Part shown: piece by piece, positions 1,841 through 15,032 of the stretch | How positions within the stretch are numbered: position 1 is the first letter of the stretch | Layout of the letters: every line of letters begins with the position of its first letter | Origin: a bacterium | Lineage (GTDB): Bacteria; SAR324; NAC60-12 | Assembly: GCA_965233585.1 (NCBI GenBank) | Contig: CBDDTI010000082.1 | Coordinates: 1-15,032 of the forward strand | Direction: 5' to 3' | Length of the DNA: 15,032 nt | The notes under the pieces: generated by a model | The model's input: only the letters and a program-made list of their open reading frames with translations | Database searches by the model: none | Told to the model about the DNA's origin: nothing | Made by a program: the position numbers and the translations under genes

Positions 1841-1914
1841 GAGTGTTGTAGAGAAATGTACCTACATCAGGCTCTTTCGAGCTTGATGTAGGCACATTTC
1901 TTCTCAAAACACTC
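1841..1914. repeat. Imperfect inverted repeat / hairpin
   Basis: agaaatgtacctacatcaggctc (1852-1874), loop tttc, gagcttgatgtaggcacatttct (1879-1901): 23-bp arms with 2 differences. Outer gagtgtt (1841) pairs with aacactc (1908-1914). Confidence 0.85.
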
Positions 1915-2019
1915 TCAAAACACCTTAAAACAGTCTAAAACGGGCTTTTAACCATCCGTTTACGCATGAAAACCATCTTGATGCGCTCTCAAACCACCTT
2001 GATGGCATCTACATTGAGT

Positions 2020-2392
2020 CTGTTGCAGGCTCAATCGAGCCTGTTTTCGTCTGTAATCGGCCTGCAACCGGCTTGTTTTCGTCTGCAATCGGCTTGCAAC
2101 AGGCTCGATCGAGCCTGTAATCGGCCTGCAACCGGCTTGTTTTCGTCTGCAATCGGCTTGCAACAGGCTCGATCGAGCCTGTAATCGGCCTGTTGCAAGC
2201 CGATTGCAGACGAAAACAAGCCGATTACAGGCTCAATCGAGCCTGTTGCAAGCCGATTACAGGCTCAATCAAGCCTGTTGCAAGCCGATTACAGGCTCAA
2301 TCAAGCCTGTTGCAAGCCGATTACAGGCTCAATCAAGCTTGTTGCAGGCCGATTGCAGACGAAAACAAGCCGGTTACAGGCTTGTTGCAACA
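2020..2392. repeat. Palindromic tandem-repeat block (32-bp units, 64-bp period on the left) arranged as inverted arms
   Basis: Unit ccgattacaggctcaatcaagcctgttgcaag starts at 2221, 2253, 2285 and 2317 (variant at 2349). Perfect 20-bp palindrome acaggctcgatcgagcctgt at 2099-2118 and 2163-2182. Perfect 36-bp inverted repeat 2133-2168 / 2188-2223. Confidence 0.92.
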
Positions 2393-2659
2393 TCTATTTT
2401 TCTTCATTGTCAAATTGTTCTCAATTTAAAAGCACGAAGAAAGGTTCTGAGAATAAAAAATGATTTAAAATTCCGTCATTTTTCTTAAAACCCGCTCAAA
2501 TGTAATTCTTCAAACTCCATATTTTAGGAAGAAGAATTTTCAAAGTTGTTTTTGATAAGACAAAAATTTGATCGCGCGTATCAAAGTTTTCATCCAATCC
2601 TGTTAAAAATTCAACTCACAGTCGTTTTCAACAGTTTCAATTATCAAGACATCTATTTT

Positions 2660-3246
2660 CTCATAGTTTTTTGATAAATGTGAGGGGTTAAAATTTTTTA
2701 ATTATAATTTATCTCTCACATTTATTTTAAAATTGTGAGTTTTTACTACACTCAAGATAACTCCGAAGACCATCTTTATTTCTCATGCTTTTTTGACAAA
2801 TGTGTGCAGGTCTAAATTCTTTAATTAAATTTGACCTGTCACATTTGGCATTAAAATTGTGAGCTATTACTCAACTCTAAAATCCAAACACTGCTTATCA
2901 TTTCATGCTTTTTTTACTCTTGTACGGGTCTCATAATGTTTTATTATATATGACACTCGCCACAAGAGTAATTAAATTGTGAGCAATTATTTAGCAGAAA
3001 CGTTGTTAAAATCGCAGTCAACTTTCATCACATTTCATCATCAAGATCTACGTCTTACGCTTTTTTAACTTTTGTGCGCGATTTAAATCTTTAATTTCAA
3101 TATTTGAATCCACATAAAAGTTACAAAATTGTGAGCAACTACTTCACACCGAAAATGTTAACATCTAATCTTCATACTTTTTTGGCACTTGTTTAACTCC
3201 AAAATTTTTATTTATTTGGATTTGCTCAAGTACCATTAAATTGTGA
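2660..3246 (+). ncRNA. Cluster of five ~75-82-nt stem-loops, putative pri-miRNA cluster
   Basis: Hairpins at 2660-2739, 2782-2863, 2902-2983, 3054-3135 and 3172-3246. Each has a ctcat(a/g)ntttt-like 5' flank pairing with aaattgtga(g), plus a unit-specific self-complementary upper stem. G:U pairs in the lower stem favour a + strand RNA. Confidence 0.6.
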
Positions 3247-3307
3247 TTACCAACTCGTCCAAATATTTGTCAAGCACGCTTTTATTTATTAGTTGTGTCT
3301 ATGTTAA

Positions 3308-3712
3308 ATGCTGTTTCAGTCGTGCAGAATGGGTGGACAAGTCAACAACCAACCAACAACAGGATCACCGCATAATTCTGACTGGGATTCTGGTCCTGAC
3401 GAAGCTGGTATTTACAGTACTTCAGATCCAACTCACATTGTGCATTGTATGCGTCGCATTTCTGCTCATCTTCGCAGAATCAACGAGTCTTTGGAATCAT
3501 TGGACAGTGAATTGGTAAACTACAGGACCTGCTTCAAAGACAAACTTCTTGGAAAACCTAATACTTCTGGCGACTCAGGCACCAGGTTGTGGTGGTATCG
3601 TGAAATCCAAAACGAGCTAAAAGTGTTTCATTTTTATGCGTCTTTTTGCATGAAATTGTTGTGCAAAGATTTTTGTTTGGAACAACACGCGGTTGATGGA
3701 GAAGAAGTATGA
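3308..3712 (+). CDS. Hypothetical protein (134 aa; alternative start at ATG 3329)
   Basis: ATG-initiated ORF in AT-rich DNA; its stop overlaps the next start (ATGA at 3709-3712). No recognisable domain. Confidence 0.5.
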   Translation: MLFQSCRMGGQVNNQPTTGSPHNSDWDSGPDEAGIYSTSDPTHIVHCMRRISAHLRRINESLESLDSELVNYRTCFKDKLLGKPNTSGDSGTRLWWYREIQNELKVFHFYASFCMKLLCKDFCLEQHAVDGEEV

Positions 3713-4032
3713 ACAACAACATTTGGCTAAAGATGAACCCAAATACACATCAACGCTCAGAACCAAACCACCGTTTTGAAGAATTGGATCAATTTCATCA
3801 AGATTTGCCAAAATCTCCTAGCCTCGAGCGTTTTTACTCTGACCCTTGCACTGATTTATGTGCTGTGATTGGAATGATCTTTACTATTATTATCTCTATT
3901 TGTGCTTGTATATGGTTGATATCGGTATCAACTTGTAACGCTCTAAAATCGCTTGCTTTAACAAATCGTACTTTAGAACTTTCTTTAGTAAATTTTACCA
4001 ATAATTCATTGTTTTTAAATGATACGTTTTAA
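3709..4032 (+). CDS. Small single-pass membrane protein, probably glycosylated (107 aa)
   Basis: Hydrophobic stretch LCAVIGMIFTIIISICACIWLISV, then N-x-S/T sequons NRT, NFT, NNS and NDT. AATAAA follows the stop; the ORF converges on the minor capsid gene. Confidence 0.6.
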   Translation: MNNNIWLKMNPNTHQRSEPNHRFEELDQFHQDLPKSPSLERFYSDPCTDLCAVIGMIFTIIISICACIWLISVSTCNALKSLALTNRTLELSLVNFTNNSLFLNDTF

Positions 4033-4043
4033 TAGAATAAAAT

Positions 4044-5795
4044 TTAAATTGGGTTTTTAATCACAATATTTAAAATAACACTTTTTTCGTCGTCGAATTC
4101 AATTAAGTCTCCGTCTAATCTCCTTAATTCAATCTTCATGTTGTCTAAATAATCAACATTGCATTTGATATATTCTAAATGCTCAAAATGGATAGAGCAG
4201 TAGTCATTTTGTTTTGACTGACCGATTGTGGGAATAATTCTAAGTATTGGGTAAAATTTGTCTCCGACAATAGAATGCTGAACAAAATTGGCATAACAAA
4301 TCATAACACCGGGATACAGTTTGTAAATGTCTATTGGTTGTGGTGCTTGATAAACTGAGTAATTTCTTACGGCAAAAAAATGGTAGTTGTTTTGATCACT
4401 AACTCTTTGTTTTTCTTCATTGGGGTAATCGTACATTCCTAAAATCGGACAAAAGCTTTGTGGAAATCCAATTATAAAAATTTGATCAGTTTTAGCCGTA
4501 ATTCTTAAATATCCATTAACGTTTTCAAAATATACTAGTTTCTTTAATTCTTCTGTCAATAAATCATTCATTGCCGTTGTTAAATCGTTAGAGTCACAAA
4601 AATAATTTTTTGGTATATTCAATTTGTGTTCTTCCTCTATGTTTCCATCCTTAACCAGTTTTATAATTATTGGTTCATTAGCGATTGATTCTGGAATGCT
4701 GCATATGCTGTCGGGAAAAGAAATATCCATCAGGGCAATTTTCGCGTTTGGATTTAAATGCAGTGGATGTTTTAAATGCACCCAAAAGCTACTATTTGTA
4801 TTTTCGTAATCCAATTTGGCATCTACTTTCGAATCGATTCGCACGTGTCTCAATTCGTGATCCATGTTTTTTTCTTTCTCCCTCAAATGGTAATGAATTA
4901 AAGACGGTTGACCTTCGTTTAAGCTTAAAAGATTTCCAAAAGCATCTGTGAATTGAGAGTTTATCGTCTCAATATTGGTTTGCCGCACTTGATAATATCT
5001 GACCTTTTTTACATTATGGTAAAAATAATGGCCCTCCATTTGCTTAGGTAAAGTTGTTGTAAACATAATTGTGGAATAATTATCACTGTTAGGAACGTCG
5101 GAAATAATATTTGATTTTACGTGAACTAAACCGGGTTTTAAAACGGAAGTCACTTTATTTGCTATGGTTTGAAACCTAAAATTTTTTTGTAACGGATAAT
5201 ACACATATTCGTTACCAAAATATTTAATTGATTTTTCTCCAGAAAAAAACACTCTGTCTTTATAACATCTTAACTTTATAATTTTTATTAACTGTTGATG
5301 AATTAGTAAGTATCTATTATAATTGTAATTTTCATTTTCCGTCTCATTTTCGGTTTCTTTTTTAGGACCTTCTTCAATTATGTAGAATCTTTTAGTTTCA
5401 CCGTCTGATTCGAGGTCACCAACAACCATTTTCATTCCTTCCTTGTAAATAAATTGCATCAAATTTTGCATTAATCTATATACTGTCAGATCTTCTTCAT
5501 CTAAATCAGGCAAAACCCAAACAGATTTTGTCTGGTTTAAAATCTCGGTCTCTATCTCCTCTTCTGAAGAATTTATAGATGTTAATTCGTTTTTTAGCGT
5601 TATGACACCGATTTGACCTTTTGTCATGGTTAATTGGTTGTAATTATAATGTAACCCCATAGATACTATTCCAATTTCCCATTCTCTATTTTTCAAATCT
5701 AAATTTTGCGGAAATAAATTGGTAAAGGAATTTAAAGTATTTTTGACGTCCGTATTGGAACCAGCGTTTGACACGCAATAAATGTTATAATCCAT
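4044..5795 (-). CDS. Maverick minor capsid (penton-like) protein with two tandem domains, 583 aa
   Basis: N-terminal motif SN..NTLNSF..FPQNLDL..EWEIGI and C-terminal motif ICYANFVQHSIVGDKFYPILRIIP..F..LEY....IELRRLDG match the Maverick minor-capsid pattern as I recall it. Each motif appears twice. Confidence 0.8.
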   Translation of the reverse strand: MDYNIYCVSNAGSNTDVKNTLNSFTNLFPQNLDLKNREWEIGIVSMGLHYNYNQLTMTKGQIGVITLKNELTSINSSEEEIETEILNQTKSVWVLPDLDEEDLTVYRLMQNLMQFIYKEGMKMVVGDLESDGETKRFYIIEEGPKKETENETENENYNYNRYLLIHQQLIKIIKLRCYKDRVFFSGEKSIKYFGNEYVYYPLQKNFRFQTIANKVTSVLKPGLVHVKSNIISDVPNSDNYSTIMFTTTLPKQMEGHYFYHNVKKVRYYQVRQTNIETINSQFTDAFGNLLSLNEGQPSLIHYHLREKEKNMDHELRHVRIDSKVDAKLDYENTNSSFWVHLKHPLHLNPNAKIALMDISFPDSICSIPESIANEPIIIKLVKDGNIEEEHKLNIPKNYFCDSNDLTTAMNDLLTEELKKLVYFENVNGYLRITAKTDQIFIIGFPQSFCPILGMYDYPNEEKQRVSDQNNYHFFAVRNYSVYQAPQPIDIYKLYPGVMICYANFVQHSIVGDKFYPILRIIPTIGQSKQNDYCSIHFEHLEYIKCNVDYLDNMKIELRRLDGDLIEFDDEKSVILNIVIKNPI

Positions 5796-5801
5796 TCCAC
5801 G

Positions 5802-6884
5802 TTATTGTGACACATCAACTACATCTTTCTCATATGTCCAACTAGGGTTTTTATACCCTCTCCATTTCACCAAAACCATGTTTTCACCTGTTTTTTTATC
5901 TTTTTTTGTTCGTAAAACCTTTTCAATCACAAATAATTCCGGCTCAATCACGGGAGTAAGTTCACTCTCATAAAAATTTCCTTCCAGAGTTTCATCCTGT
6001 TCTAAAGTTTCCAATTCATAAGTAGGTTTAGGCAAACGAGTAAAAATTGATTTTATTTTAAAAATTTCTTCCTTAAATTGTTGTGTAAAACCTCTGTCAA
6101 ATTTTCCCTTCATTATGCTAATGCGCACGGTTTGACCAATTTTGTATTTTGGTCTTTTTCTTTTAAACTTCGAATAATGCAATTCCTGTTTTCTTCTAAT
6201 AAAATAAGTCCGACCAGGGAGCTCAGCTTCAGCGGGTGACATCCCAATCATTCGATGTTTACGATGGTTGTAAGTATGAACAAGAAAAGGTAACGCATCG
6301 ATGTACCTATCTGTATTTTCGTGAGTCATGTATTTAAACATCAGATTTTTCAAAGTTCGGTTAAATCTTTCCACAAAAGGGGCGTGCACAAAATTGTTGC
6401 TGTGTAATAGAAGAATGTTATTGTTTTTGCAGTAGGCTTGAAACAATTTATTCTTTATTTCTGCACCTTTATCAGCTAAAATTCTACGAGGAAACTTTTT
6501 TGCTCTTCTCATAATAGACTCAAACCCCTCCATAAAAGTTTTTGCTGTTTTATTTTTTAAGGGTTCTACAAACGCGAATCGTGTAAAAATATCAATAGCT
6601 GTTAAAAGGTATCTATTCCCATCATTTTCTTCGATCAAATTTCCTAAATCTATAAGATCAATTTGAAATTGATATCTCTTATGATAAGCAAATGTTGGAT
6701 TTCTAGGTTTAGGTAATTTTGGTTGTTTATGAAGTGTGTAAGAATCAGTTCCCTTTAACCATTCTTCTATTGTTGTCAAGGGAATTTTTTTTCCATAATA
6801 ATAATAAATCAACGCAGGAGATGCAAAAGCTATTGGTGAGCCTGGTCTTGCATATTCTTTTAAAAAAATCTCTTTTGTTGTCAT
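5802..6884 (-). CDS. Retroviral-like (rve) DDE integrase with C-terminal chromodomain, Maverick type
   Basis: QFQIDLID (D), YLLTAIDIFTRFA, ILADKGAEI (D), FVERFNRTLK (E), YNHRKHRMIGMSP. Chromodomain FVIEKVL...LVKWRGY..PSW. Confidence 0.96.
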   Translation of the reverse strand: MTTKEIFLKEYARPGSPIAFASPALIYYYYGKKIPLTTIEEWLKGTDSYTLHKQPKLPKPRNPTFAYHKRYQFQIDLIDLGNLIEENDGNRYLLTAIDIFTRFAFVEPLKNKTAKTFMEGFESIMRRAKKFPRRILADKGAEIKNKLFQAYCKNNNILLLHSNNFVHAPFVERFNRTLKNLMFKYMTHENTDRYIDALPFLVHTYNHRKHRMIGMSPAEAELPGRTYFIRRKQELHYSKFKRKRPKYKIGQTVRISIMKGKFDRGFTQQFKEEIFKIKSIFTRLPKPTYELETLEQDETLEGNFYESELTPVIEPELFVIEKVLRTKKDKKTGENMVLVKWRGYKNPSWTYEKDVVDVSQ

Positions 6885-7300: not shown

Positions 7301-8020
7301 TTATTGCTCTAGACTTTTAAGACATCTGTATAAAGACATAACACTGACGCCTAAAATACGAGCCGTATTTTTGACGCTCGGATATAGTGCTCTTGTTTCT
7401 TTTAAAAAGGCATAAGCACATGCTGCTAATAAAGTCCTAGGAGCAAAAGAACTATTTTCATTTTTATTTAGTTTTTCTTTTATAGTTGTCATCTCTTGAT
7501 AATTTAACTGTAGAGGCTGTAAAAAATATTCTGCCATATCTTTTGCTTTTATAGAATTTTCTGTCTTGATTGTGTTGGTCGAATCTTGTCTGTATAATTT
7601 TATCCATCTCCATACCGTTTTTGGACTAATACCAATTTCCTGGCACAAATGACTTATTGGACGGGGAATTTTTTCCTTTATTAAACTTTGATACAATGCC
7701 ATAGCAATTAAGCCTTTTGGATTAATTTTAATTTTTCCATTTTTTTGATAATGCCACGCTGCTATTTCTGTCCACAAATCAAAAATAGTTTTTGTAACAT
7801 CATTATTTAAATGTAATTTATTACATAAATTTTTTAAAATATTTTTTTCTTTCTTTAAATGTTCGCTGTTTTGTTCAAAGTCTTCATTTAAATTTTTTAT
7901 TTTTTCCCATTTTGTTTCTAAATTTGGTTCACAATATATTTTATCAATAACTAAACCACACTCAGTACACACTACGTCTCCTTGTCTGGTGTCTTCTATT
8001 ATATATTGATGAATGCACAT
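7301..8020 (-). CDS. TFIIB: TFIIB-like transcription initiation factor (Zn ribbon + two cyclin folds); probable start ATG 8020
   Basis: Zn ribbon CIH...EDTRQGDVVCTECGLVID. First cyclin repeat ends LIAMALY...KIPRPISHLCQEIGIS. Second repeat has PRTLLAACAY...VKNTARILGVS. Confidence 0.88.
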   Translation of the reverse strand: MCIHQYIIEDTRQGDVVCTECGLVIDKIYCEPNLETKWEKIKNLNEDFEQNSEHLKKEKNILKNLCNKLHLNNDVTKTIFDLWTEIAAWHYQKNGKIKINPKGLIAMALYQSLIKEKIPRPISHLCQEIGISPKTVWRWIKLYRQDSTNTIKTENSIKAKDMAEYFLQPLQLNYQEMTTIKEKLNKNENSSFAPRTLLAACAYAFLKETRALYPSVKNTARILGVSVMSLYRCLKSLEQ

Positions 8021-8126
8021 TTTAATCAAATCTAATTTTTGATCATAATTTCATTGTTTATTGAATGAAGTTCAAAATTTGACTGATTTTATAAATAAAC
8101 TGACGTAATCTTTTATTATATTGAAT

Positions 8127-8669
8127 TTATTCAGTTTTATATTTTTTCAGCAATTCATAAATAATTTTTATTCCTTGTTTAGCGTCTTTTTCGCAGGAAG
8201 CACCAATTATTACTATTTTTCCAGACGAAAATATTAAAGCAGAACACTTCTTTAATGTTAAAAACATTCCAGGAAATTTCTCACAGTCGTATCTTTTTTG
8301 GATAATTTCAAAATCTACATTTAATTTCAAATTGTTGTAAAATGTTAATAAATTGATTTTTGATGACATATGACACAAACAAGTCATGTTTTCTATTTTA
8401 AACTTTTCAGTAATAAATTTATTACTTATAACAAGTTTTAATTCGTCTAATGCTTTTGGTATATGCTCTGTGGAAGGGATTTTAGTAATATTTACGTGGA
8501 AATTTTGATTTTGCTTTGTTTTAGTAAACACAATAAAAGAATATTTTTTCTTAACAACAGTAAAATTATTATAATGTTTTAGTACATTATCAGTATTAAA
8601 AGAAATTTTGTCGCTGTCGATGAGACGAATTTTGCAACTGATTTTAACATTGCTGACCATCACTTCCAT
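8127..8669 (-). CDS. TBP: TATA-binding protein-like (core only, divergent first repeat), 180 aa
   Basis: Second repeat KIENM...INL...YDCEKFPGMF...ALIFSSGKIVIIGA...IYELLKKY matches TBP YEPELFPGL...LIFxSGKVVxTGA. First repeat VSNVKIS..NFTVV..FIVF..VNITK is degenerate. Confidence 0.9.
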   Translation of the reverse strand: MEVMVSNVKISCKIRLIDSDKISFNTDNVLKHYNNFTVVKKKYSFIVFTKTKQNQNFHVNITKIPSTEHIPKALDELKLVISNKFITEKFKIENMTCLCHMSSKINLLTFYNNLKLNVDFEIIQKRYDCEKFPGMFLTLKKCSALIFSSGKIVIIGASCEKDAKQGIKIIYELLKKYKTE

Positions 8670-8675
8670 CTTGGT

Positions 8676-10025
8676 ATGGGCTTGCCCGACAAAAGCGGAA
8701 TTGCTGGATTAGCCGTGGAACAAAACGATGGCACAGAAAGTGGTTTAGCGCTTCACGCACCCTTAGAAGTGGAAACGGGTCTATTGGAAGGGGCTCACGT
8801 TATTTACAATAGCGTGGCTTCTATCACCAACACCGGACCGGTAGAATTTCTTGTTCCTCGCGACAACGAGTGTTCTTTTATACTGAGTCAAACCAGACTC
8901 AGTGGACATTTTGTAGTGACAAATGATGATGGTGGCTTTGTTACGGACGCAAGTAAAACCGCGTTGGTAAATCATTTTGCTGCTTGTTTATTCAGTCAAG
9001 TAGAAGTATATTTGAATGGAGTTCAGGTAGCTGATTTAAGTTCGGCAGTCACCTACCCCTGGAGAATGTTTTTACAATCATATTTAAGTTACAATATTGA
9101 CGTAAAAGACACTTATCTGTCTGCTGAAGGATATTATCCTGAAACTGAAGACGAAACTACTGCCACCAAAATTACTGATGAAGTTTCTTCTAGTTCTTTG
9201 AAAAAAAGAAAGAATTTAATTTTAAACGGAAAAAAAGTATTTTTCAACTCGCGTATAGCTGTTGATCTGTTTGACACTGATCGATTCTTACCACCAAATG
9301 TGGATATCAAGATAAAATTGGTTAGATCGGCTGAAACATTTGGTTTGCTTCAAGATCCTGCAGCAGCAAAACCTTTCAAGATTGTGTTGAAAGATGTCAA
9401 ATTGCATATGAGAAAAGTGTTGCCCACGTTGATAATACGAGAAAGTTTCAAAAACAAACTTTTAAAAGAACCGTGCTACCTGCCTTTTAGCTCTACACGT
9501 TTAAGACATTACGTTATTCCTCAAGGCGTGTCGTCTTTTAACATCGCTAATATTGCTAATGGAACATTACCCAAACAAGTGTTTTTTGTGATGGTTCACA
9601 ATCAGGCTATGTCGCATGCTCCCGACAAAAATCCTTTTAATTTTCAACACTTTAATCTTTCCTCGTTTAATTTAAAAAAGAACGGACAATGCGTATTTCC
9701 CAAACCTTTTCAACCTAACATAGGGGAAGGGGACGCCGTTGACTTATATCGACATTTATACGACAGTATAGGTATTTCGCACGGCAATCAGTCCATTGGC
9801 TTGACGTATGATGCTTTTATAGATGGAAGATTTTTTCTGGCGGCCGACTTGACACCGGATCAATGTAATTCTTACCACACACATCCAGAAAATTATGGAA
9901 ATTTAGATTTAGAGTTGGCTTTTTCCCAAGTCACTCCCCATCCAATATACGTTCTAGCCTTATCTATTTTTAACTCCGGTATTAAAATAGATCAATTTCA
10001 ACAAGTCATGAAAGGAACCAATTAA
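8676..10025 (+). CDS. Maverick major capsid protein (double jelly-roll, hexon-like), 449 aa
   Basis: GPVEFLVP, LFSQVEVYLNG, DLFDTDRFLPPNVDIKIKLVR, LPKQVF..MV, NPFNFQHF, DLTPD and GNLDLELAF are conserved Maverick MCP blocks; the gene sits next to the protease. Confidence 0.92.
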   Translation: MGLPDKSGIAGLAVEQNDGTESGLALHAPLEVETGLLEGAHVIYNSVASITNTGPVEFLVPRDNECSFILSQTRLSGHFVVTNDDGGFVTDASKTALVNHFAACLFSQVEVYLNGVQVADLSSAVTYPWRMFLQSYLSYNIDVKDTYLSAEGYYPETEDETTATKITDEVSSSSLKKRKNLILNGKKVFFNSRIAVDLFDTDRFLPPNVDIKIKLVRSAETFGLLQDPAAAKPFKIVLKDVKLHMRKVLPTLIIRESFKNKLLKEPCYLPFSSTRLRHYVIPQGVSSFNIANIANGTLPKQVFFVMVHNQAMSHAPDKNPFNFQHFNLSSFNLKKNGQCVFPKPFQPNIGEGDAVDLYRHLYDSIGISHGNQSIGLTYDAFIDGRFFLAADLTPDQCNSYHTHPENYGNLDLELAFSQVTPHPIYVLALSIFNSGIKIDQFQQVMKGTN

Positions 10026-10028
10026 AAT

Positions 10029-10511
10029 ATGAAGGGTGGGTTATCAAATATCTTTTTAAACAATTACATTAGACCCAGATGTAAGAATTTCGTCGGGGTA
10101 TTTTCGGTCGACGACTTGCCATCTGATCTGCTTTCATTGCCTTGCTGTCTGATCGCTAACTTATCCAAAAGAAATCAAGAAGGATCTCATTTCGTGGCAA
10201 TGTACATTAACAAGAAAAATCAACTTTATTATTTTGATTCTTTCGGTTTTTTACCGCCGATATGGAATAAATGCCTGATGAAGTTTTTACGACCCTGGAT
10301 AGAGAAGAACTCCTTCAAAATTGTCTTATCTCACTCAATTCAAAGTTTCCGTTCTTTGTTTTGCGGATGGTACACGTGCGCATTTTGTTTATCTGTGGGC
10401 AACAATTTAATGACCCCTCAACAATTCGTTAAAATATTTGTAAAAAATCCCAAATCAGAAAATGATAAAATTGTAACTCATTTTATAAAAAAAATTGAAA
10501 ATAAATGTTGA
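10029..10511 (+). CDS. Adenain-like (Ulp1/C5) cysteine maturation protease
   Basis: FVGVFSVD, IANL...GSHFVAM (His), YFDSFG (Asp), IQS...CGWY (Gln/Cys). Confidence 0.94.
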   Translation: MKGGLSNIFLNNYIRPRCKNFVGVFSVDDLPSDLLSLPCCLIANLSKRNQEGSHFVAMYINKKNQLYYFDSFGFLPPIWNKCLMKFLRPWIEKNSFKIVLSHSIQSFRSLFCGWYTCAFCLSVGNNLMTPQQFVKIFVKNPKSENDKIVTHFIKKIENKC

Positions 10512-12409: not shown

Positions 12410-13105
12410 TTAAACGGTAACGTAAGCTTTCATCAGTCCCTCGTACGGAAAAATGTTGCTTCGAATTCTGACTTTATCGTCTTGTTGTTGATGGAAATCT
12501 AGAAGGAGATATCCGTGACTTCGACCGTTAACAGCTTCCCTGTATGCTTTATTTAAAATTCCGACTCGTCCGGGGAAAATTTGTTTAGCCAAATGCGCAA
12601 CCGCACTTCTGTCCCGAGGATTGTTAAAAAGAACCATATACTGTGTGTTTATGCTTAATGTCCGCAAATCACCTTTTTTATCAAATAAATTTTGACACAG
12701 AAAAACGGTGAAACAATTGTAGTGATGAGTCAAAACCGTAAAAAAATGTTTTAATATTTGTCCAACATCGTCTAAATAATCATCAAAAACAACTAATTTG
12801 GGCATTTTTCTTGGATATGATTCCAAAATATCTTTTAGTTCTTCAATCGAATTTGGAATACTTTTAAATTTACGAAATGTTGGAAAGCGAGAGTTTGAAC
12901 GTTTGTCTCGATTCATATCATCTTCCATGTATTCATAAGCTTTTTGTGGTTCTTTGTAGAACAACAACATTGTTTCTGGTGGAGTTGCAAAATATTCATG
13001 CCTACCAACCACTAAATGTTTAAGCCACGTTGTTTTTCCACTCGATGTTGGGCCAACAATTAACATGTTGGAAGGAATACTGAACCTTAAATCAAAACCA
13101 TCCAT
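12410..13105 (-). CDS. A32/FtsK-like genome-packaging ATPase
   Basis: Walker A GPTSSGKT, Walker B LVVFDD, then THHYN, FLCQNLF, RTLSINTQY, NNPRD and GYLLLD. Confidence 0.95.
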   Translation of the reverse strand: MDGFDLRFSIPSNMLIVGPTSSGKTTWLKHLVVGRHEYFATPPETMLLFYKEPQKAYEYMEDDMNRDKRSNSRFPTFRKFKSIPNSIEELKDILESYPRKMPKLVVFDDYLDDVGQILKHFFTVLTHHYNCFTVFLCQNLFDKKGDLRTLSINTQYMVLFNNPRDRSAVAHLAKQIFPGRVGILNKAYREAVNGRSHGYLLLDFHQQQDDKVRIRSNIFPYEGLMKAYVTV

Positions 13106-13961: not shown

Positions 13962-14179
13962 CTGAAATGCAGAATAAGATTTATTTAATAAAGAAAATTG
14001 ATTATGTGCGCAATCACCTCAGCTAACTAGCCGTCCCATATCACATTTCATTTTCCTCTGTAATTAGCAATGTACTATAATTTACTTCAATTTGAAATCA
14101 TTCCTTTTTTAAAGCCCGACATAAACGGACATCAAAAATTCCAACAAAATAAACACTAAGTCAAAATGGATAAAAAAGA

Positions 14180-15031
14180 TCAGGAAAAGAGCAAAGCTTT
14201 TTGGTTAAAAGTAATAAAATCAGGCCAGGAGGAGGCAACTTCAAGTCCGACTTCTGGCAGTAGCTCTACCGGGGCTGCGGCTGGGGGAGCATGGTCATCT
14301 ACTAAAACTGAGGGAGCATGGTCATCTTCTGGGGCTGCGGGTGGAGGATCATGGACATCTTCCGAGCGTCCCGTGGCACCTGCTTGGCCATCACGGACTC
14401 CGTACAAGTCCGTCCCACAAAAATCAGGGTCGGGGTCGTGGAAGAGCGCATCTACTGCTGGGGTCGGGGGCGGAGGAGCATGGTCATCCACTAAAACCGG
14501 AGGAGCATGGTCATCTTCTGCGGCCTTGGGTGGGGAATCATGGTCATCTTCCGAACGTCCTGTGGCACCTGCTTGGCCATCACAGACCCCGTACAAGTCC
14601 GTCCCACAAAAATCAGAGCGGGAGTCGTGGAAGAGCGCATCTACTGTCGGAGCCGGGAGTGGGGGAGCATGGTCATCTACTAAAACTGGAGGAGCATGGT
14701 CATCTTCTGGGGCTGTGGGCGGAGGAGCATGGTCATCTGCTAAAAATGAGGGGGCATGGTCATCAACTAAAACTGCGGGAGCATGGTCATCTTCTGCGGC
14801 CTTGGGTGGGGGATCATGGGCATCTTCCGAACGTCCCGTGGCACCTGCTTGGCCATCACGGACCCCGTACAAGTCCGTCCCAAAAAAATCAGAGCCGGAG
14901 TCGTGGAAGAGCGCATCTACTACCGGGGCTGGGGGCAGGGGAGCATGGTCATCTACTAAAACTGGAGGAGCATGGACATCTTCTGGGGCTGTGGGCGGAG
15001 GAGCATGGTCATCTGCTAAAACTGAGGGGGC
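14180..15031 (-). CDS. Pro/Asp-rich repetitive protein (DDHAPP repeats), 5' end outside the window
   Basis: The frame stays open from the window edge (APSVLADDHAPP...) to the stop at 14180. Higher-order repeat spacings of 189 and 276 bp are multiples of 3. Confidence 0.55.
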   Translation of the reverse strand, partial: APSVLADDHAPPPTAPEDVHAPPVLVDDHAPLPPAPVVDALFHDSGSDFFGTDLYGVRDGQAGATGRSEDAHDPPPKAAEDDHAPAVLVDDHAPSFLADDHAPPPTAPEDDHAPPVLVDDHAPPLPAPTVDALFHDSRSDFCGTDLYGVCDGQAGATGRSEDDHDSPPKAAEDDHAPPVLVDDHAPPPPTPAVDALFHDPDPDFCGTDLYGVRDGQAGATGRSEDVHDPPPAAPEDDHAPSVLVDDHAPPAAAPVELLPEVGLEVASSWPDFITFNQKALLFS

Positions 15032-15032
15032 A
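14260..15032. repeat. GC-rich nested tandem repeat
   Basis: gagcatggtcatc recurs about every 27-33 bp. The block cgtacaagtccgtccca starts at 14401, 14590 and 14866. Confidence 0.92.

Follow-up and report, generated by a model that had tools for sequence, protein, structure and literature searches.

A tandem array of putative microRNA-precursor-like hairpins adjoining the left terminal repeat of a Maverick-like element

The window (the whole stretch of DNA that was analysed, 15,032 nucleotides) carries the left end of a Maverick-like element of ~24 kb, of which the assembly contains at least 21 copies. Apart from an array of hairpins that is described below, the following features were assigned:

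1846..2505, no strand: left terminal inverted repeat (TIR) with first letters TTGTAGAGAAATG, a terminal palindrome (1843-1910) and GC-rich 32-nt subrepeats (2039-2400)
2617..2624, + strand: CACAGTCG (CACAGTY motif), 40-55 nt upstream of the first hairpin; conserved in the alignment of subfamilies A, A2 and B
3283..3321, + strand: core-promoter-like stretch of orf1 with the TATA-like TATTTATTAG at 3283-3292 and TCAGTC at 3316-3321, 8 nt before the ATG
3329..3712, + strand: orf1, 127 aa, first gene 3' of the array in every copy; no Pfam and no PHROG match
4044..5795, - strand: penton / minor-capsid-like protein (predicted), 583 aa; nearest ESM Atlas clusters viral, commonest phylum Preplasmiviricota
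5802..6884, - strand: rve integrase with C-terminal chromodomain (PF00665, E 2.8e-9; PF00385, E 6.7e-5)
8676..10025, + strand: candidate double-jelly-roll major capsid protein, 449 aa, an ESM Atlas lead only
10029..10511, + strand: adenain-like protease, weak match (PF00770, E 0.0042, below the curated cut-off)
12410..13105, - strand: A32/FtsK-type packaging ATPase, weak match (PF04665, E 8.5e-4; PF01580, E 6.4e-3; both below cut-off)

Similarity among all copies ends at ~1843-1846, which marks the left border of the element. The element possesses TIRs of the kind looked for in Mavericks, as seen in the copies C288 and C579, where they are inverted matches of 458 and 580 nt with 92% and 96% identity, respectively. 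The same holds for the integrase, which scored 37.6 bits against PF00665 (cut-off 32.6) and 23.2 bits against PF00385. No target-site duplication of 5-6 bp was recognized by eye in either of two copies inspected; nested insertions could hide it. In Foldseek searches with a low-confidence model (pLDDT 58.6), the 583-aa protein matched minor capsid proteins of mavirus and virophages, adintovirus proteins, adomavirus LO5 and the adenovirus penton, and its modelled fold thus appears penton- or minor-capsid-like. Its 27 homologues stem from ENA assemblies, where identity is 38-48%, or from the present assembly; IMG/VR yielded no relatives with the single protein, and a 7-sequence profile found none there or in metagenome contigs of JGI. 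The clusters nearest to the 449-aa protein in the ESM Atlas consist of animal proteins of ~450 aa, 15-24% of whose members carry the DJR-like domain PF21738. Neither this protein nor the 583-aa family had a Pfam match or yielded anything meaningful in PDB sequence searches. No polymerase family was detected among the 30 ORFs of the full element, and none of the 21 PF03175 matches in the assembly falls within an A or B copy of the element: 20 are on other contigs and one is on C212 (67.2 kb), away from the copies there. Since a protein-primed polymerase B is not detectable, the element is not a canonical Maverick. The preliminary description, which had placed the hairpins in a Maverick, is thus borne out by the integrase with chromodomain, the TIRs and the capsid-like genes, but has to be qualified with respect to polymerase B.

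The contig comes from a mixed bin, most of which is eukaryotic. That an assembly filed as a bacterium consists of about two-thirds animal DNA exposes a practical problem with such labels. The assembly contains an animal-type tandem histone unit (H3-H4-H2B-H2A-H1) with an Rfam histone 3' stem-loop after each gene; the closest named relatives of its histone H1 are from molluscs, and those of a Gypsy-type pol gene in the flank of the window are from animals. To judge from these genes, the host of the element looks like an animal, and a mollusc-like one; the contig is linked to the mollusc-like histone contigs by co-binning and not by physical linkage. As the eukaryotic DNA is animal-like, Drosha geometry is a fair yardstick for the hairpins. 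Searches of the partial eukaryotic fraction of the assembly gave no match for Piwi, and the only RNase III gene, located on a contig with dense ORFs, was taken as bacterial, with no eukaryotic one found; these absences are uninformative because the eukaryotic fraction is partial.

The array comprises five hairpin units of 77-82 nt at 2660-3247, which were delimited from the sequence and with a regular expression for the scaffold. It adjoins the left TIR on the inner side, upstream of the first + strand gene, and is present at one end of the element only. The units are listed with their paired positions among copies and their predicted folding energies (kcal/mol) on both strands:

2660..2739, + strand: hairpin unit 1, 80 nt, 32 pairs; 97.2% of cells paired among copies, 2 pairs compensatory; + -30.9 (z -8.38), - -14.0 (z -4.72)
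2782..2863, + strand: hairpin unit 2, 82 nt, 32 pairs; 96.5% paired; + -27.2 (z -5.43), - -25.2 (z -5.99)
2902..2983, + strand: hairpin unit 3, 82 nt, 31 pairs; 98.7% paired, 1 compensatory pair; + -27.1 (z -5.81), - -23.8 (z -4.88)
3054..3135, + strand: hairpin unit 4, 82 nt, 31 pairs; 99.0% paired, 9 one-sided changes with pairing intact; + -24.4 (z -5.14), - -16.1 (z -1.29)
3171..3247, + strand: hairpin unit 5, 77 nt, 25 pairs; 98.4% paired, 2 compensatory pairs; + -19.7 (z -4.67), - -19.7 (z -4.40)

Sizes of 80, 82, 82, 82 and 77 nt and start-to-start distances of 122, 120, 152 and 117 nt agree with the five hairpins spaced ~120-150 bp apart that had been reported previously; the spacers between the units measure only 35-70 nt. 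Each unit forms a single stem-loop on the + strand. The previously proposed basal stem of ~11 bp common to all units was confirmed as CUCAUGCUUUU / AAAAUUGUGAG, including a U:G pair, a G:U pair and a C.U mismatch, and the loops are A/U-rich as claimed (6-13 nt). All units have a run of T5-T7 inside the 5' arm, and the flanks on the 3' side are rich in C and A and lack T runs. The 3' scaffold AAAATTGTGA, which resembles an early motif of giant viruses, is confined to the five units and precedes no gene, and was rejected as a giant-virus early promoter. When both strands were folded and compared with shuffled sequences, as the preliminary description had suggested, the z-scores on the + strand (-4.7 to -8.4) were mostly better than those on the - strand, and none of 200 shuffles equalled the native + strand energy of any of the five units. 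For the whole array (2600-3330; 20 shuffles per strand) z was -8.22 on the + strand vs -4.53 on the - strand, and the spacers were mostly unpaired in the centroid fold.

About 12 element copies have retained the array. The number of units among copies is 5, 4, 1 or ~10: one copy, on C212, has lost units 2-5, and in subfamily B the corresponding site is occupied by about 10 hairpins, next to an orf1 whose protein is 66% identical. One of the subfamily B units shows decay, 3/9 copies having lost 31 nt of it. In tblastn searches, orf1 was recovered from 12 copies with 85-100% amino acid identity, from nine full-length copies with 66%, and as further paralogs with 36-41%. The promoter-like stretch of orf1 has a mean identity of 84% among A, A2 and B, and the arrays directly upstream of it, including the B array relative to the A array, are not alignable by BLAST. 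The TCAGTY immediately upstream of orf1 is similar to the CACAGTY motif at 2617-2624.

A covariance model (R1) trained on A/A2 units only was scanned against the 12-Mb assembly. It gave 75 matches at E<=0.01, all of them within arrays (55 of A, 20 of B) and all oriented like orf1. The scaffold sought in related elements is therefore present in B, at the same site. A search for the scaffold pattern in IMG/VR gave 56 single matches, approximately the number expected by chance, and no arrays; none of these matches was a comparably clean hairpin, the best one (-22.4 kcal/mol) being in a different context.

Pairing is kept in homologous arrays, as had been demanded of a miRNA cluster: in 151 pairs compared among 11 copies of subfamily A, 98.0% of cells remained paired, and in subfamily B 98.3%. 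In subfamily A, two-sided pair changes numbered 5 vs 1.0±0.9 in shuffled data (1/500 shuffles reached 5), slid controls gave 1 each, and another 24 pairs had a one-sided change with pairing retained. The covariation expected in the preliminary description was hence found for A, but was not significant for B with 2 compensatory pairs vs 0.9 expected (80/500 shuffles reached 2). The units are diverged tandem duplicates that can still be aligned with one another, and 18 pairs share a common register, six of them with compensatory differences. The earlier notion of variable upper stems holds in that these stems differ and stay paired; since the units are alignable paralogs whose upper stems are not fully unrelated, it goes too far. 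Of 15 non-redundant hairpins (five from A, ten from B), 14 were more stable on the + strand (Wilcoxon p 0.0015), and G:U pairs outnumbered A.C 1x1 mismatches (56 vs 5). Changes per column amounted to 0.06-0.08 in the basal stems, 0.145 in the upper 3' arm, 0.225 in the upper 5' arm, 0.20 in the loop and 0.23 in the spacers. The 3' arm is thus the better conserved upper strand (p 0.008 relative to the upper 5' arm), and the basal 3' strand changed more slowly than the spacers (p 3e-6).

The hairpins were also compared with animal pri-miRNAs. Most of the latter are described as having an imperfect stem of ~35 bp flanked by basal and apical single-strand junctions (PMC7668254). In 14 hairpins of the present arrays, arm length was 36.5±3.5 positions (range 32-44). 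A CNNC motif is usually placed ~16-18 nt from the 3' cut of Drosha (PMC9905709). In 12/15 units a CNNC starts at +4 to +7 from the stem base (shuffled mean 2.9; 0/3000 shuffles reached 12), in 9/15 it starts at +6/+7 (shuffled mean 1.6), and in 0/15 it does so when read on the - strand. Because the 15 units are paralogs, these counts and those for strand preference do not represent 15 independent events. Hairpin, arms and pairing are furthermore conserved between subfamilies. Basal UG, apical UGU/GUG and mGHG motifs are processing enhancers and not obligatory. A basal UG at the junction was found in only 1/15 units and an apical UGU/GUG in 0/14 loops. The canonical mGHG, defined as a mismatched GHG at positions 7-9 of the 3p strand (PMC7668254), is absent; positions 5-7 of the basal stem are U:G, G:U and C.U. 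The Drosha substrate geometry that had been postulated is thus supported by the stems of ~36 positions and the CNNC offset, but not by the auxiliary motifs. The absence of the latter, the non-significant covariation in subfamily B and the paralogy of the units argue against the pri-miRNA reading.

An Rfam scan (E<=1) yielded only sub-threshold matches to miRNA families, in unit 1 (mir-5728, E 0.39; MIR1523, E 0.47) and in the GC-rich TIR palindromes (mir-1788, 39 bits; cut-off 57). They were treated as chance matches. No tRNA genes were found. When all 30 arms were searched against the 12-Mb assembly with blastn-short, no near-perfect antisense match to any arm was detected outside the arrays; beyond them there were only scattered AT-rich matches of 18-22 nt. 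These Rfam and blastn outcomes likewise weigh against the pri-miRNA reading.

Taken together, the folding, its strand bias, the conservation, the flanking motif, the position of the array and its distribution among copies point to a pri-miRNA-like cluster, that is, a polycistronic precursor of small RNAs, and we hold this reading with somewhat better than even confidence. The array would probably be transcribed rightward (+) from the Maverick-like element by RNA polymerase II in an animal nucleus, with CACAGTY in CACAGTCG as a candidate initiator of the transcript. Each unit of ~80 nt would then act as a pri-miRNA-like hairpin, on which the conserved basal stem of ~11-13 bp and the C-rich 3' flank (CNNC) may position the host Microprocessor; cleavage by Drosha and Dicer would release the upper ~22 bp as a miRNA duplex, either arm of which might serve as guide against a target. 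Whole units, scaffold and flanks included, are presumed to have been duplicated in tandem and to have diverged thereafter by paired changes in the upper stems, so that one subfamily now has five units and another about 10. There is, in our estimation, an even chance that a marine invertebrate hosts a Maverick-like virus or transposon equipped with a modular 'scaffold plus guide' microRNA cassette. In such a cassette one Microprocessor-docking stem with its flank would have been duplicated 5 to 10 times while the guide-bearing upper stems diversified, and host RNA silencing could be steered at (i) defence genes; (ii) rival elements; or (iii) the element's own genes.

All of the + strand RNA-structure evidence would fit equally well with a structured RNA in a non-guide role, such as a decoy or sponge for dsRNA-binding proteins or a stability or localisation element of a non-coding transcript, and a single protein could bind again and again to the many near-identical scaffolds. 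Adenovirus VA RNAs are Pol III products which act as decoys for PKR, Exportin-5 and Dicer; adenoviruses and Mavericks are placed in one virus realm, with which the predicted capsid-like folds agree. A non-guide RNA does not, however, predict a stem of ~35 positions, the CNNC offset or the slower evolution of one upper arm, and the T5-T7 run in every 5' arm should stop Pol III in the case of a VA-type RNA. We therefore regard this explanation as unlikely. Location is one argument for a role at the DNA level, either in replication (origin, priming or resolution structures) or as a repeated packaging signal: the array occurs at one end only, just inside the TIR, as does the adenovirus packaging domain just inside the left ITR. 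Moreover, a putative A32/FtsK-like ATPase is encoded, the lack of polymerase B leaves the mode of replication open, and G.T pairs are tolerated in single-stranded DNA, the + strand being displaced from the left end in replication of the adenovirus type. Duplex recognition, however, needs neither palindromic variable parts nor compensatory changes, a one-sided C-rich motif at a fixed offset (12/15 vs 0/15) is not predicted, and the adenovirus A-repeat consensus TTTG-N8-CG was not seen by eye. A DNA-level role is accordingly judged improbable.

The variable number of tandemly duplicated units, the loss of units 2-5 in the C212 copy and the deletion in a B unit would be natural for a neutral minisatellite generated by functionless duplication of an AT-rich palindrome, and hairpins arise easily in AT-rich DNA. 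Such a repeat is nevertheless hard to reconcile with basal stems and 3' arms that change 2-4 times less than spacers, with 98% of cells paired by way of compensatory and G:U-preserving changes, with strand asymmetry, and with persistence of the array in subfamilies that share no more than 66% identity in the adjacent protein; we consider it very improbable. The predicted virophage-like capsid folds of the element also bring to mind the transcript ends that follow the 'hairpin rule' of giant viruses, as in Mimiviridae and virophages. Genes of virophages and transpovirons are described as lying between terminator hairpins and late promoters that belong to the helper virus (PMC7031253, PMC4402537). 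In the window, however, no ORF of at least 80 aa ends on the + strand between 2488 and 3243, the spacers measure no more than 35-70 nt, 5-10 signals without intervening genes are not what the rule describes, and the eukaryotic fraction is animal-like rather than protist, which makes transcript ends of this type scarcely credible.

Viral miRNA clusters have been found chiefly in herpesviruses, along with a few other nuclear DNA viruses and retroviruses; the literature searched contained none from Mavericks/Polintons, polinton-like viruses or virophages. Should the array indeed give rise to small RNAs, it would be the first miRNA cluster described in the Polinton/Maverick lineage. Processing of the hairpins would imply that widespread giant transposon-viruses of animals exploit host RNA silencing, and that they do so with a natural, reusable pri-miRNA scaffold on which new guides evolved by duplication, a natural counterpart of engineered multi-shRNA-mir arrays. 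Model R1 would in that case provide a structure-level marker with which the element could be traced in invertebrate genomes.

Among relatives of the element, a survey of polinton-like viruses and virophages lists miRNA-family matches from Rfam scans (n = 10); in the section concerned this is a tally only, without cluster, structure, conservation or position (PMC12220804). The penton-like fold and the adenain-like protease (weak match) suggest kinship with adenoviruses. VA RNAs of the latter are structured hairpin RNAs which Dicer is able to cut; unlike the present array, they are encoded by one or two genes of ~160 nt located far from the genome end. The adenovirus A repeats likewise consist of an AT-rich motif that recurs next to the left terminal repeat on its inner side, but they are short duplex motifs with neither hairpin potential nor covariation. 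Bovine leukaemia virus (BLV) also has a row of five hairpins within a short non-coding stretch; there, each short pre-miRNA is made directly by Pol III, with a T run after the hairpin. Unlike these, the present stems extend over ~36 positions including the lower stem, and their T runs lie inside the 5' arms with none after the hairpins, so that viral pre-miRNAs of the BLV type were rejected. Other parallels are the miRNA clusters of nuclear DNA viruses, namely the herpesviruses KSHV, EBV (BART) and Marek's disease virus. Here, too, several Drosha-type hairpins of ~80 nt lie 100-150 nt apart on one strand, in a non-coding stretch of a dsDNA virus genome near terminal repeats; in contrast to them, the present lineage is Maverick/Polinton-like, integrated and multicopy, and all of its units have one conserved basal scaffold and 3' flank. 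Host miRNA clusters that have grown by tandem duplication, such as miR-430 of fish, the mir-17~92 paralogs and C19MC, share with the array the duplication of hairpin plus flank, in which mature parts diverge and processing determinants stay. Those clusters are host genes, whereas the array described here rides on a mobile element with at least 21 copies.

Five hairpins occupy positions 2660-3247 of the window, directly inside the left terminal repeat of a Maverick-like mobile element, and end 83 nt before the ATG of orf1:

2660-2739, + strand: hairpin unit 1 (80 nt; -30.9 kcal/mol)
2782-2863, + strand: hairpin unit 2 (82 nt; -27.2 kcal/mol)
2902-2983, + strand: hairpin unit 3 (82 nt; -27.1 kcal/mol)
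3054-3135, + strand: hairpin unit 4 (82 nt; -24.4 kcal/mol)
3171-3247, + strand: hairpin unit 5 (77 nt; -19.7 kcal/mol)
3329-3712, + strand: orf1, the first + strand gene after the array

Unit starts are 122, 120, 152 and 117 nt apart. On the + strand each of the five units folded into one stem-loop (z -8.4 to -4.7), and none of 200 shuffles equalled any unit. Folds of the - strand reached -14.0, -25.2, -23.8, -16.1 and -19.7 kcal/mol for units 1 to 5 (z -4.7, -6.0, -4.9, -1.3 and -4.4). For the entire array, z was -8.2 on the + strand and -4.5 on the - strand. Because units and whole array fold far below shuffled sequences, the five-hairpin array of the preliminary description, where it was read as a putative Maverick-encoded microRNA cluster, is confirmed. 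Its upper stems had been described as different yet still paired. The pairing was borne out, but the upper stems cannot be taken as unrelated insertions, since the five units can still be aligned as tandem duplicates that have diverged, with 18 pairs in a common register, six of which stay paired via two-sided changes.

Among 15 non-redundant hairpins, 14 folded better on the + strand (Wilcoxon p 0.0015). The + strand structures contain 56 G:U pairs vs 5 A.C single mismatches (binomial p 6e-12), and the basal stem holds a conserved tandem U:G/G:U. This asymmetry in folding and G:U content points to a single-stranded molecule of + sense, most simply an RNA that runs in the same direction as the neighbouring genes. 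Transcription of the + strand by Pol III is argued against by runs of at least four T inside every 5' arm (T6-T7 in subfamily A; A, A2 and B are groups of element copies in the assembly). A CACAGTY motif, common to the three subfamilies, lies 40-55 nt before the first hairpin and resembles the TCAGTY after a TATA-like box before orf1; judged from sequence, it may mark the start of an array transcript. Between array and orf1 lies one further feature:

3283-3321: core-promoter-like stretch (TATTTATTAG, 23 nt later TCAGTC, then 8 nt to the orf1 ATG)

This stretch, 84% identical between subfamilies whose arrays resist alignment, is likely the TATA+Inr core promoter of orf1, so that orf1 probably has its own transcription start downstream of the array.

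A regular expression for the scaffold, the basal stem shared by the units, retrieved 52 units in 12 arrays on 11 contigs of the assembly, with identical array position throughout. In subfamily A, represented by 11 copies with 78-98% identity to the window across the array region, the 151 pairs are 98.0% paired: 104 are invariant, 24 show one-sided changes with pairing kept, 18 differ only through pair-losing copies, and five carry two-sided changes, compared to 1.0±0.9 in shuffles (1 of 500 reached five) and one in each of six slid controls. Subfamily B, whose orf1 protein is 66% identical and whose array is not alignable by BLAST, has about ten hairpins (77-91 nt each) at the same site, with 79 nt between the last one and the ATG. 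Its 270 pairs are 98.3% paired in nine copies, with two compensatory pairs vs an expected 0.9 (80 of 500 shuffles had as many; not significant). Covariation was found in subfamily A and between paralogous units, and was not significant within subfamily B. A covariance model trained on ten A/A2 units only, with which the whole 12.0-Mb assembly was searched at E<=0.01, gave 75 full-length matches in orf1 orientation (55 in A arrays, 20 in B arrays) and none outside these arrays. With the detection of B arrays by the A-trained model, the scaffold was traced into a related subfamily of the same assembly; the preliminary description had suggested looking for it in related Mavericks.

At their far end, B elements carry an inward-pointing orf1 paralog (~40% identity; contigs C30:~1900-2250 and C77:~3400-3740, and other right ends), which no array precedes; one hairpin of 97 nt lies 22 nt upstream of it. 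Array size varies among copies, as one copy (contig C212:48665-49045 / 48651) lacks the equivalent of window positions 2794-3252 (units 2-5) and keeps unit 1 alone, while the copy on contig C592 lacks unit 1. The eighth B hairpin, which has a weak multibranched fold (-17 kcal/mol) and in 3 of 9 copies lacks 31 nt (columns ~1004-1031 of the alignment of B arrays L033-L041), looks like a decaying unit. Four sequencing runs, all of DNA, were compared with the array, and one of them, a seawater metagenome, contained a diverged array copy on an 825-nt contig matching window positions 2708-3400. There, window stretches of 81 and 222 nt give way to 80 and 106 different letters; two whole units were therefore lost or swapped for other sequence of similar length, while flanking units were kept. 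Exact scaffold searches of IMG/VR gave chance-level matches only, and relatives of the element beyond the assembly were found only as ENA proteins.

The AT-rich middle of the window (~30-40% G+C) is the mobile element, which begins at ~1846 and extends past the contig end. Complete copies measure ~24 kb, with terminal inverted repeats (TIRs) matching over 458-580 nt. Further features of the window are:

13-1203, - strand: Gypsy-type LTR-retrotransposon pol fragment (RVT_1), GC-rich left flank
1843-1910: palindrome at the very terminus of the left TIR (32-nt arms)
2039-2400: GC-rich 32-nt subrepeats of the left TIR (inverted repeats up to 156 nt, dG about -77 kcal/mol)
7301-8029 and 8127-8669, - strand: genes for a TFIIB-like zinc-ribbon/HTH protein and an adjoining TBP-like protein (Pfam matches)
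14166-15032, + strand: GC-rich ORF within the element, with 276-nt tandem repeats (14286-15026; 84-93% identical) holding 36-nt sub-repeats

The repeat ORF, which matches no Pfam family, explains why G+C climbs towards the right end of the window. The GC-rich TIR repeats gave below-threshold matches to Rfam mir-1788/mir-1307. Encoded by the element are (i) an rve integrase with chromodomain; (ii) C2H2 zinc-finger proteins; (iii) an adenain-like protease and an A32/FtsK-like ATPase, both weak matches under Pfam cut-offs; (iv) the TFIIB-like (PF08271, E 1.8e-7) and TBP-like (PF00352, E 4.3e-18, one repeat matched) proteins, basal transcription factors being unusual cargo for a Maverick-like element; (v) a 583-aa protein resembling viral proteins in the ESM Atlas (commonest phylum Preplasmiviricota) and, by a model of low confidence (pLDDT 58.6), matching the minor-capsid/penton proteins of mavirus, virophage, adintovirus, adomavirus and adenovirus; (vi) a 449-aa protein whose nearest ESM Atlas clusters are DJR-like capsid proteins of animals. 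TATA-like boxes lie upstream of orf1 in this element with its own TBP-like and TFIIB-like proteins. A search of the element brought up no protein-primed polymerase B (of 21 PF03175 matches in the assembly, 20 are on other contigs and one is on C212 away from the element copies there), and hairpin-forming ends may matter for its replication, polymerase B not being found. Neither of two copies examined showed a target-site duplication. For these two reasons the element is Maverick-like, not a canonical Maverick.

The assembly (12.0 Mb, 747 contigs, of which the window is one complete contig of 15,032 bases), although filed as a bacterium, is a mixed bin of bacterial and animal DNA. This follows from 708 contigs (8.2 Mb) that have a low density of ORFs at equal G+C and from an animal-type histone quintet with mollusc-like H1. 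The 39 contigs of high ORF density (3.8 Mb) comprise large bacteria-like contigs and about ten compact, Maverick-rich ones; element-like sequence totals 565 kb on 28 contigs. Low-density contigs carry a 6.6-kb tandem unit of H3, H4, H2B, H2A and H1 (e.g. contig C7:2000-8800), each gene followed by an Rfam histone 3' stem-loop above gathering score. Among its named relatives, H1 is closest to those of molluscs (Mytilus, Crassostrea, Ostrea, Saccostrea, Aplysia, Nucella). Named relatives of the Gypsy-type fragment, which the element adjoins or is inserted into, are from a fish and a pseudoscorpion; longer relatives add RNase H and integrase domains. On the basis of histone unit, H1 and pol flank, the host is most likely an animal and probably a mollusc, the tie being by co-binning, not physical linkage.

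Most pri-miRNAs are described as having a ~35-bp stem between two junctions; Drosha cuts ~13 bp from a junction, and a basal UG, an mGHG at 7-9 of the 3p strand, an apical UGU and a CNNC in the 3' segment serve as helper motifs (PMC7668254). A second paper puts CNNC ~16-18 nt away from the 3' cut and reports it for 59.4% of human pri-miRNAs (PMC9905709). Hairpin arms of the array measure 36.5±3.5 positions. In 12 of 15 units CNNC starts 4-7 nt beyond the stem base, and in nine at +6/+7, vs shuffled-flank means of 2.9 and 1.6 (0 of 3000 shuffles match the observed count) and 0 of 15 on the - strand reading; the units being paralogs, CNNC and motif counts are not independent events. Basal UG occurs at the junction in just 1 of 15 units, UGU/GUG in 0 of 14 loops, and positions 5-7 of the basal stem show wobble, wobble, mismatch, not a canonical mGHG. 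Changes per column were fewest in basal stems (0.06-0.08), followed by the upper 3' arm (0.145); loops (0.20), the upper 5' arm (0.225) and spacers (0.23) changed most (upper 3' vs upper 5' arm, p 0.008; basal 3' vs spacer, p 3e-6). These rates fit a scaffold plus guide. For none of the arms did the assembly contain a near-perfect antisense site outside the arrays.

The array of hairpins is genuine and strand-specific; it is under selection and specific to the element family. Its best explanation, held with somewhat more confidence than doubt, is a polycistronic pri-miRNA-like precursor made by Pol II, which host Microprocessor and Dicer would process. A structured RNA with another role would share the + strand bias; set beside the CNNC placement and arm lengths, it is unlikely. 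Ranked just after it, and likewise unlikely, is a DNA-level replication or packaging structure, which would suit the position inside the terminal repeat but would not predict the compensatory changes or a CNNC on one side only. A neutral palindromic minisatellite might vary in unit number as the array does; given the retained pairing, it is improbable. Helper-virus terminator hairpins are reported to be used by virophage and transpoviron genes (PMC7031253), but transcript ends set by such a hairpin rule are very improbable here, since the hairpins do not follow a gene and the host appears to be an animal.

Full-text literature searches turned up no miRNA cluster described for Mavericks, Polintons, PLVs or virophages; a 2025 PLV survey tallies 10 Rfam miRNA matches without comment (PMC12220804). 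Compared to known viral or transposon miRNA clusters, the array would represent a lineage without a described case, and its scaffold is unusually uniform.
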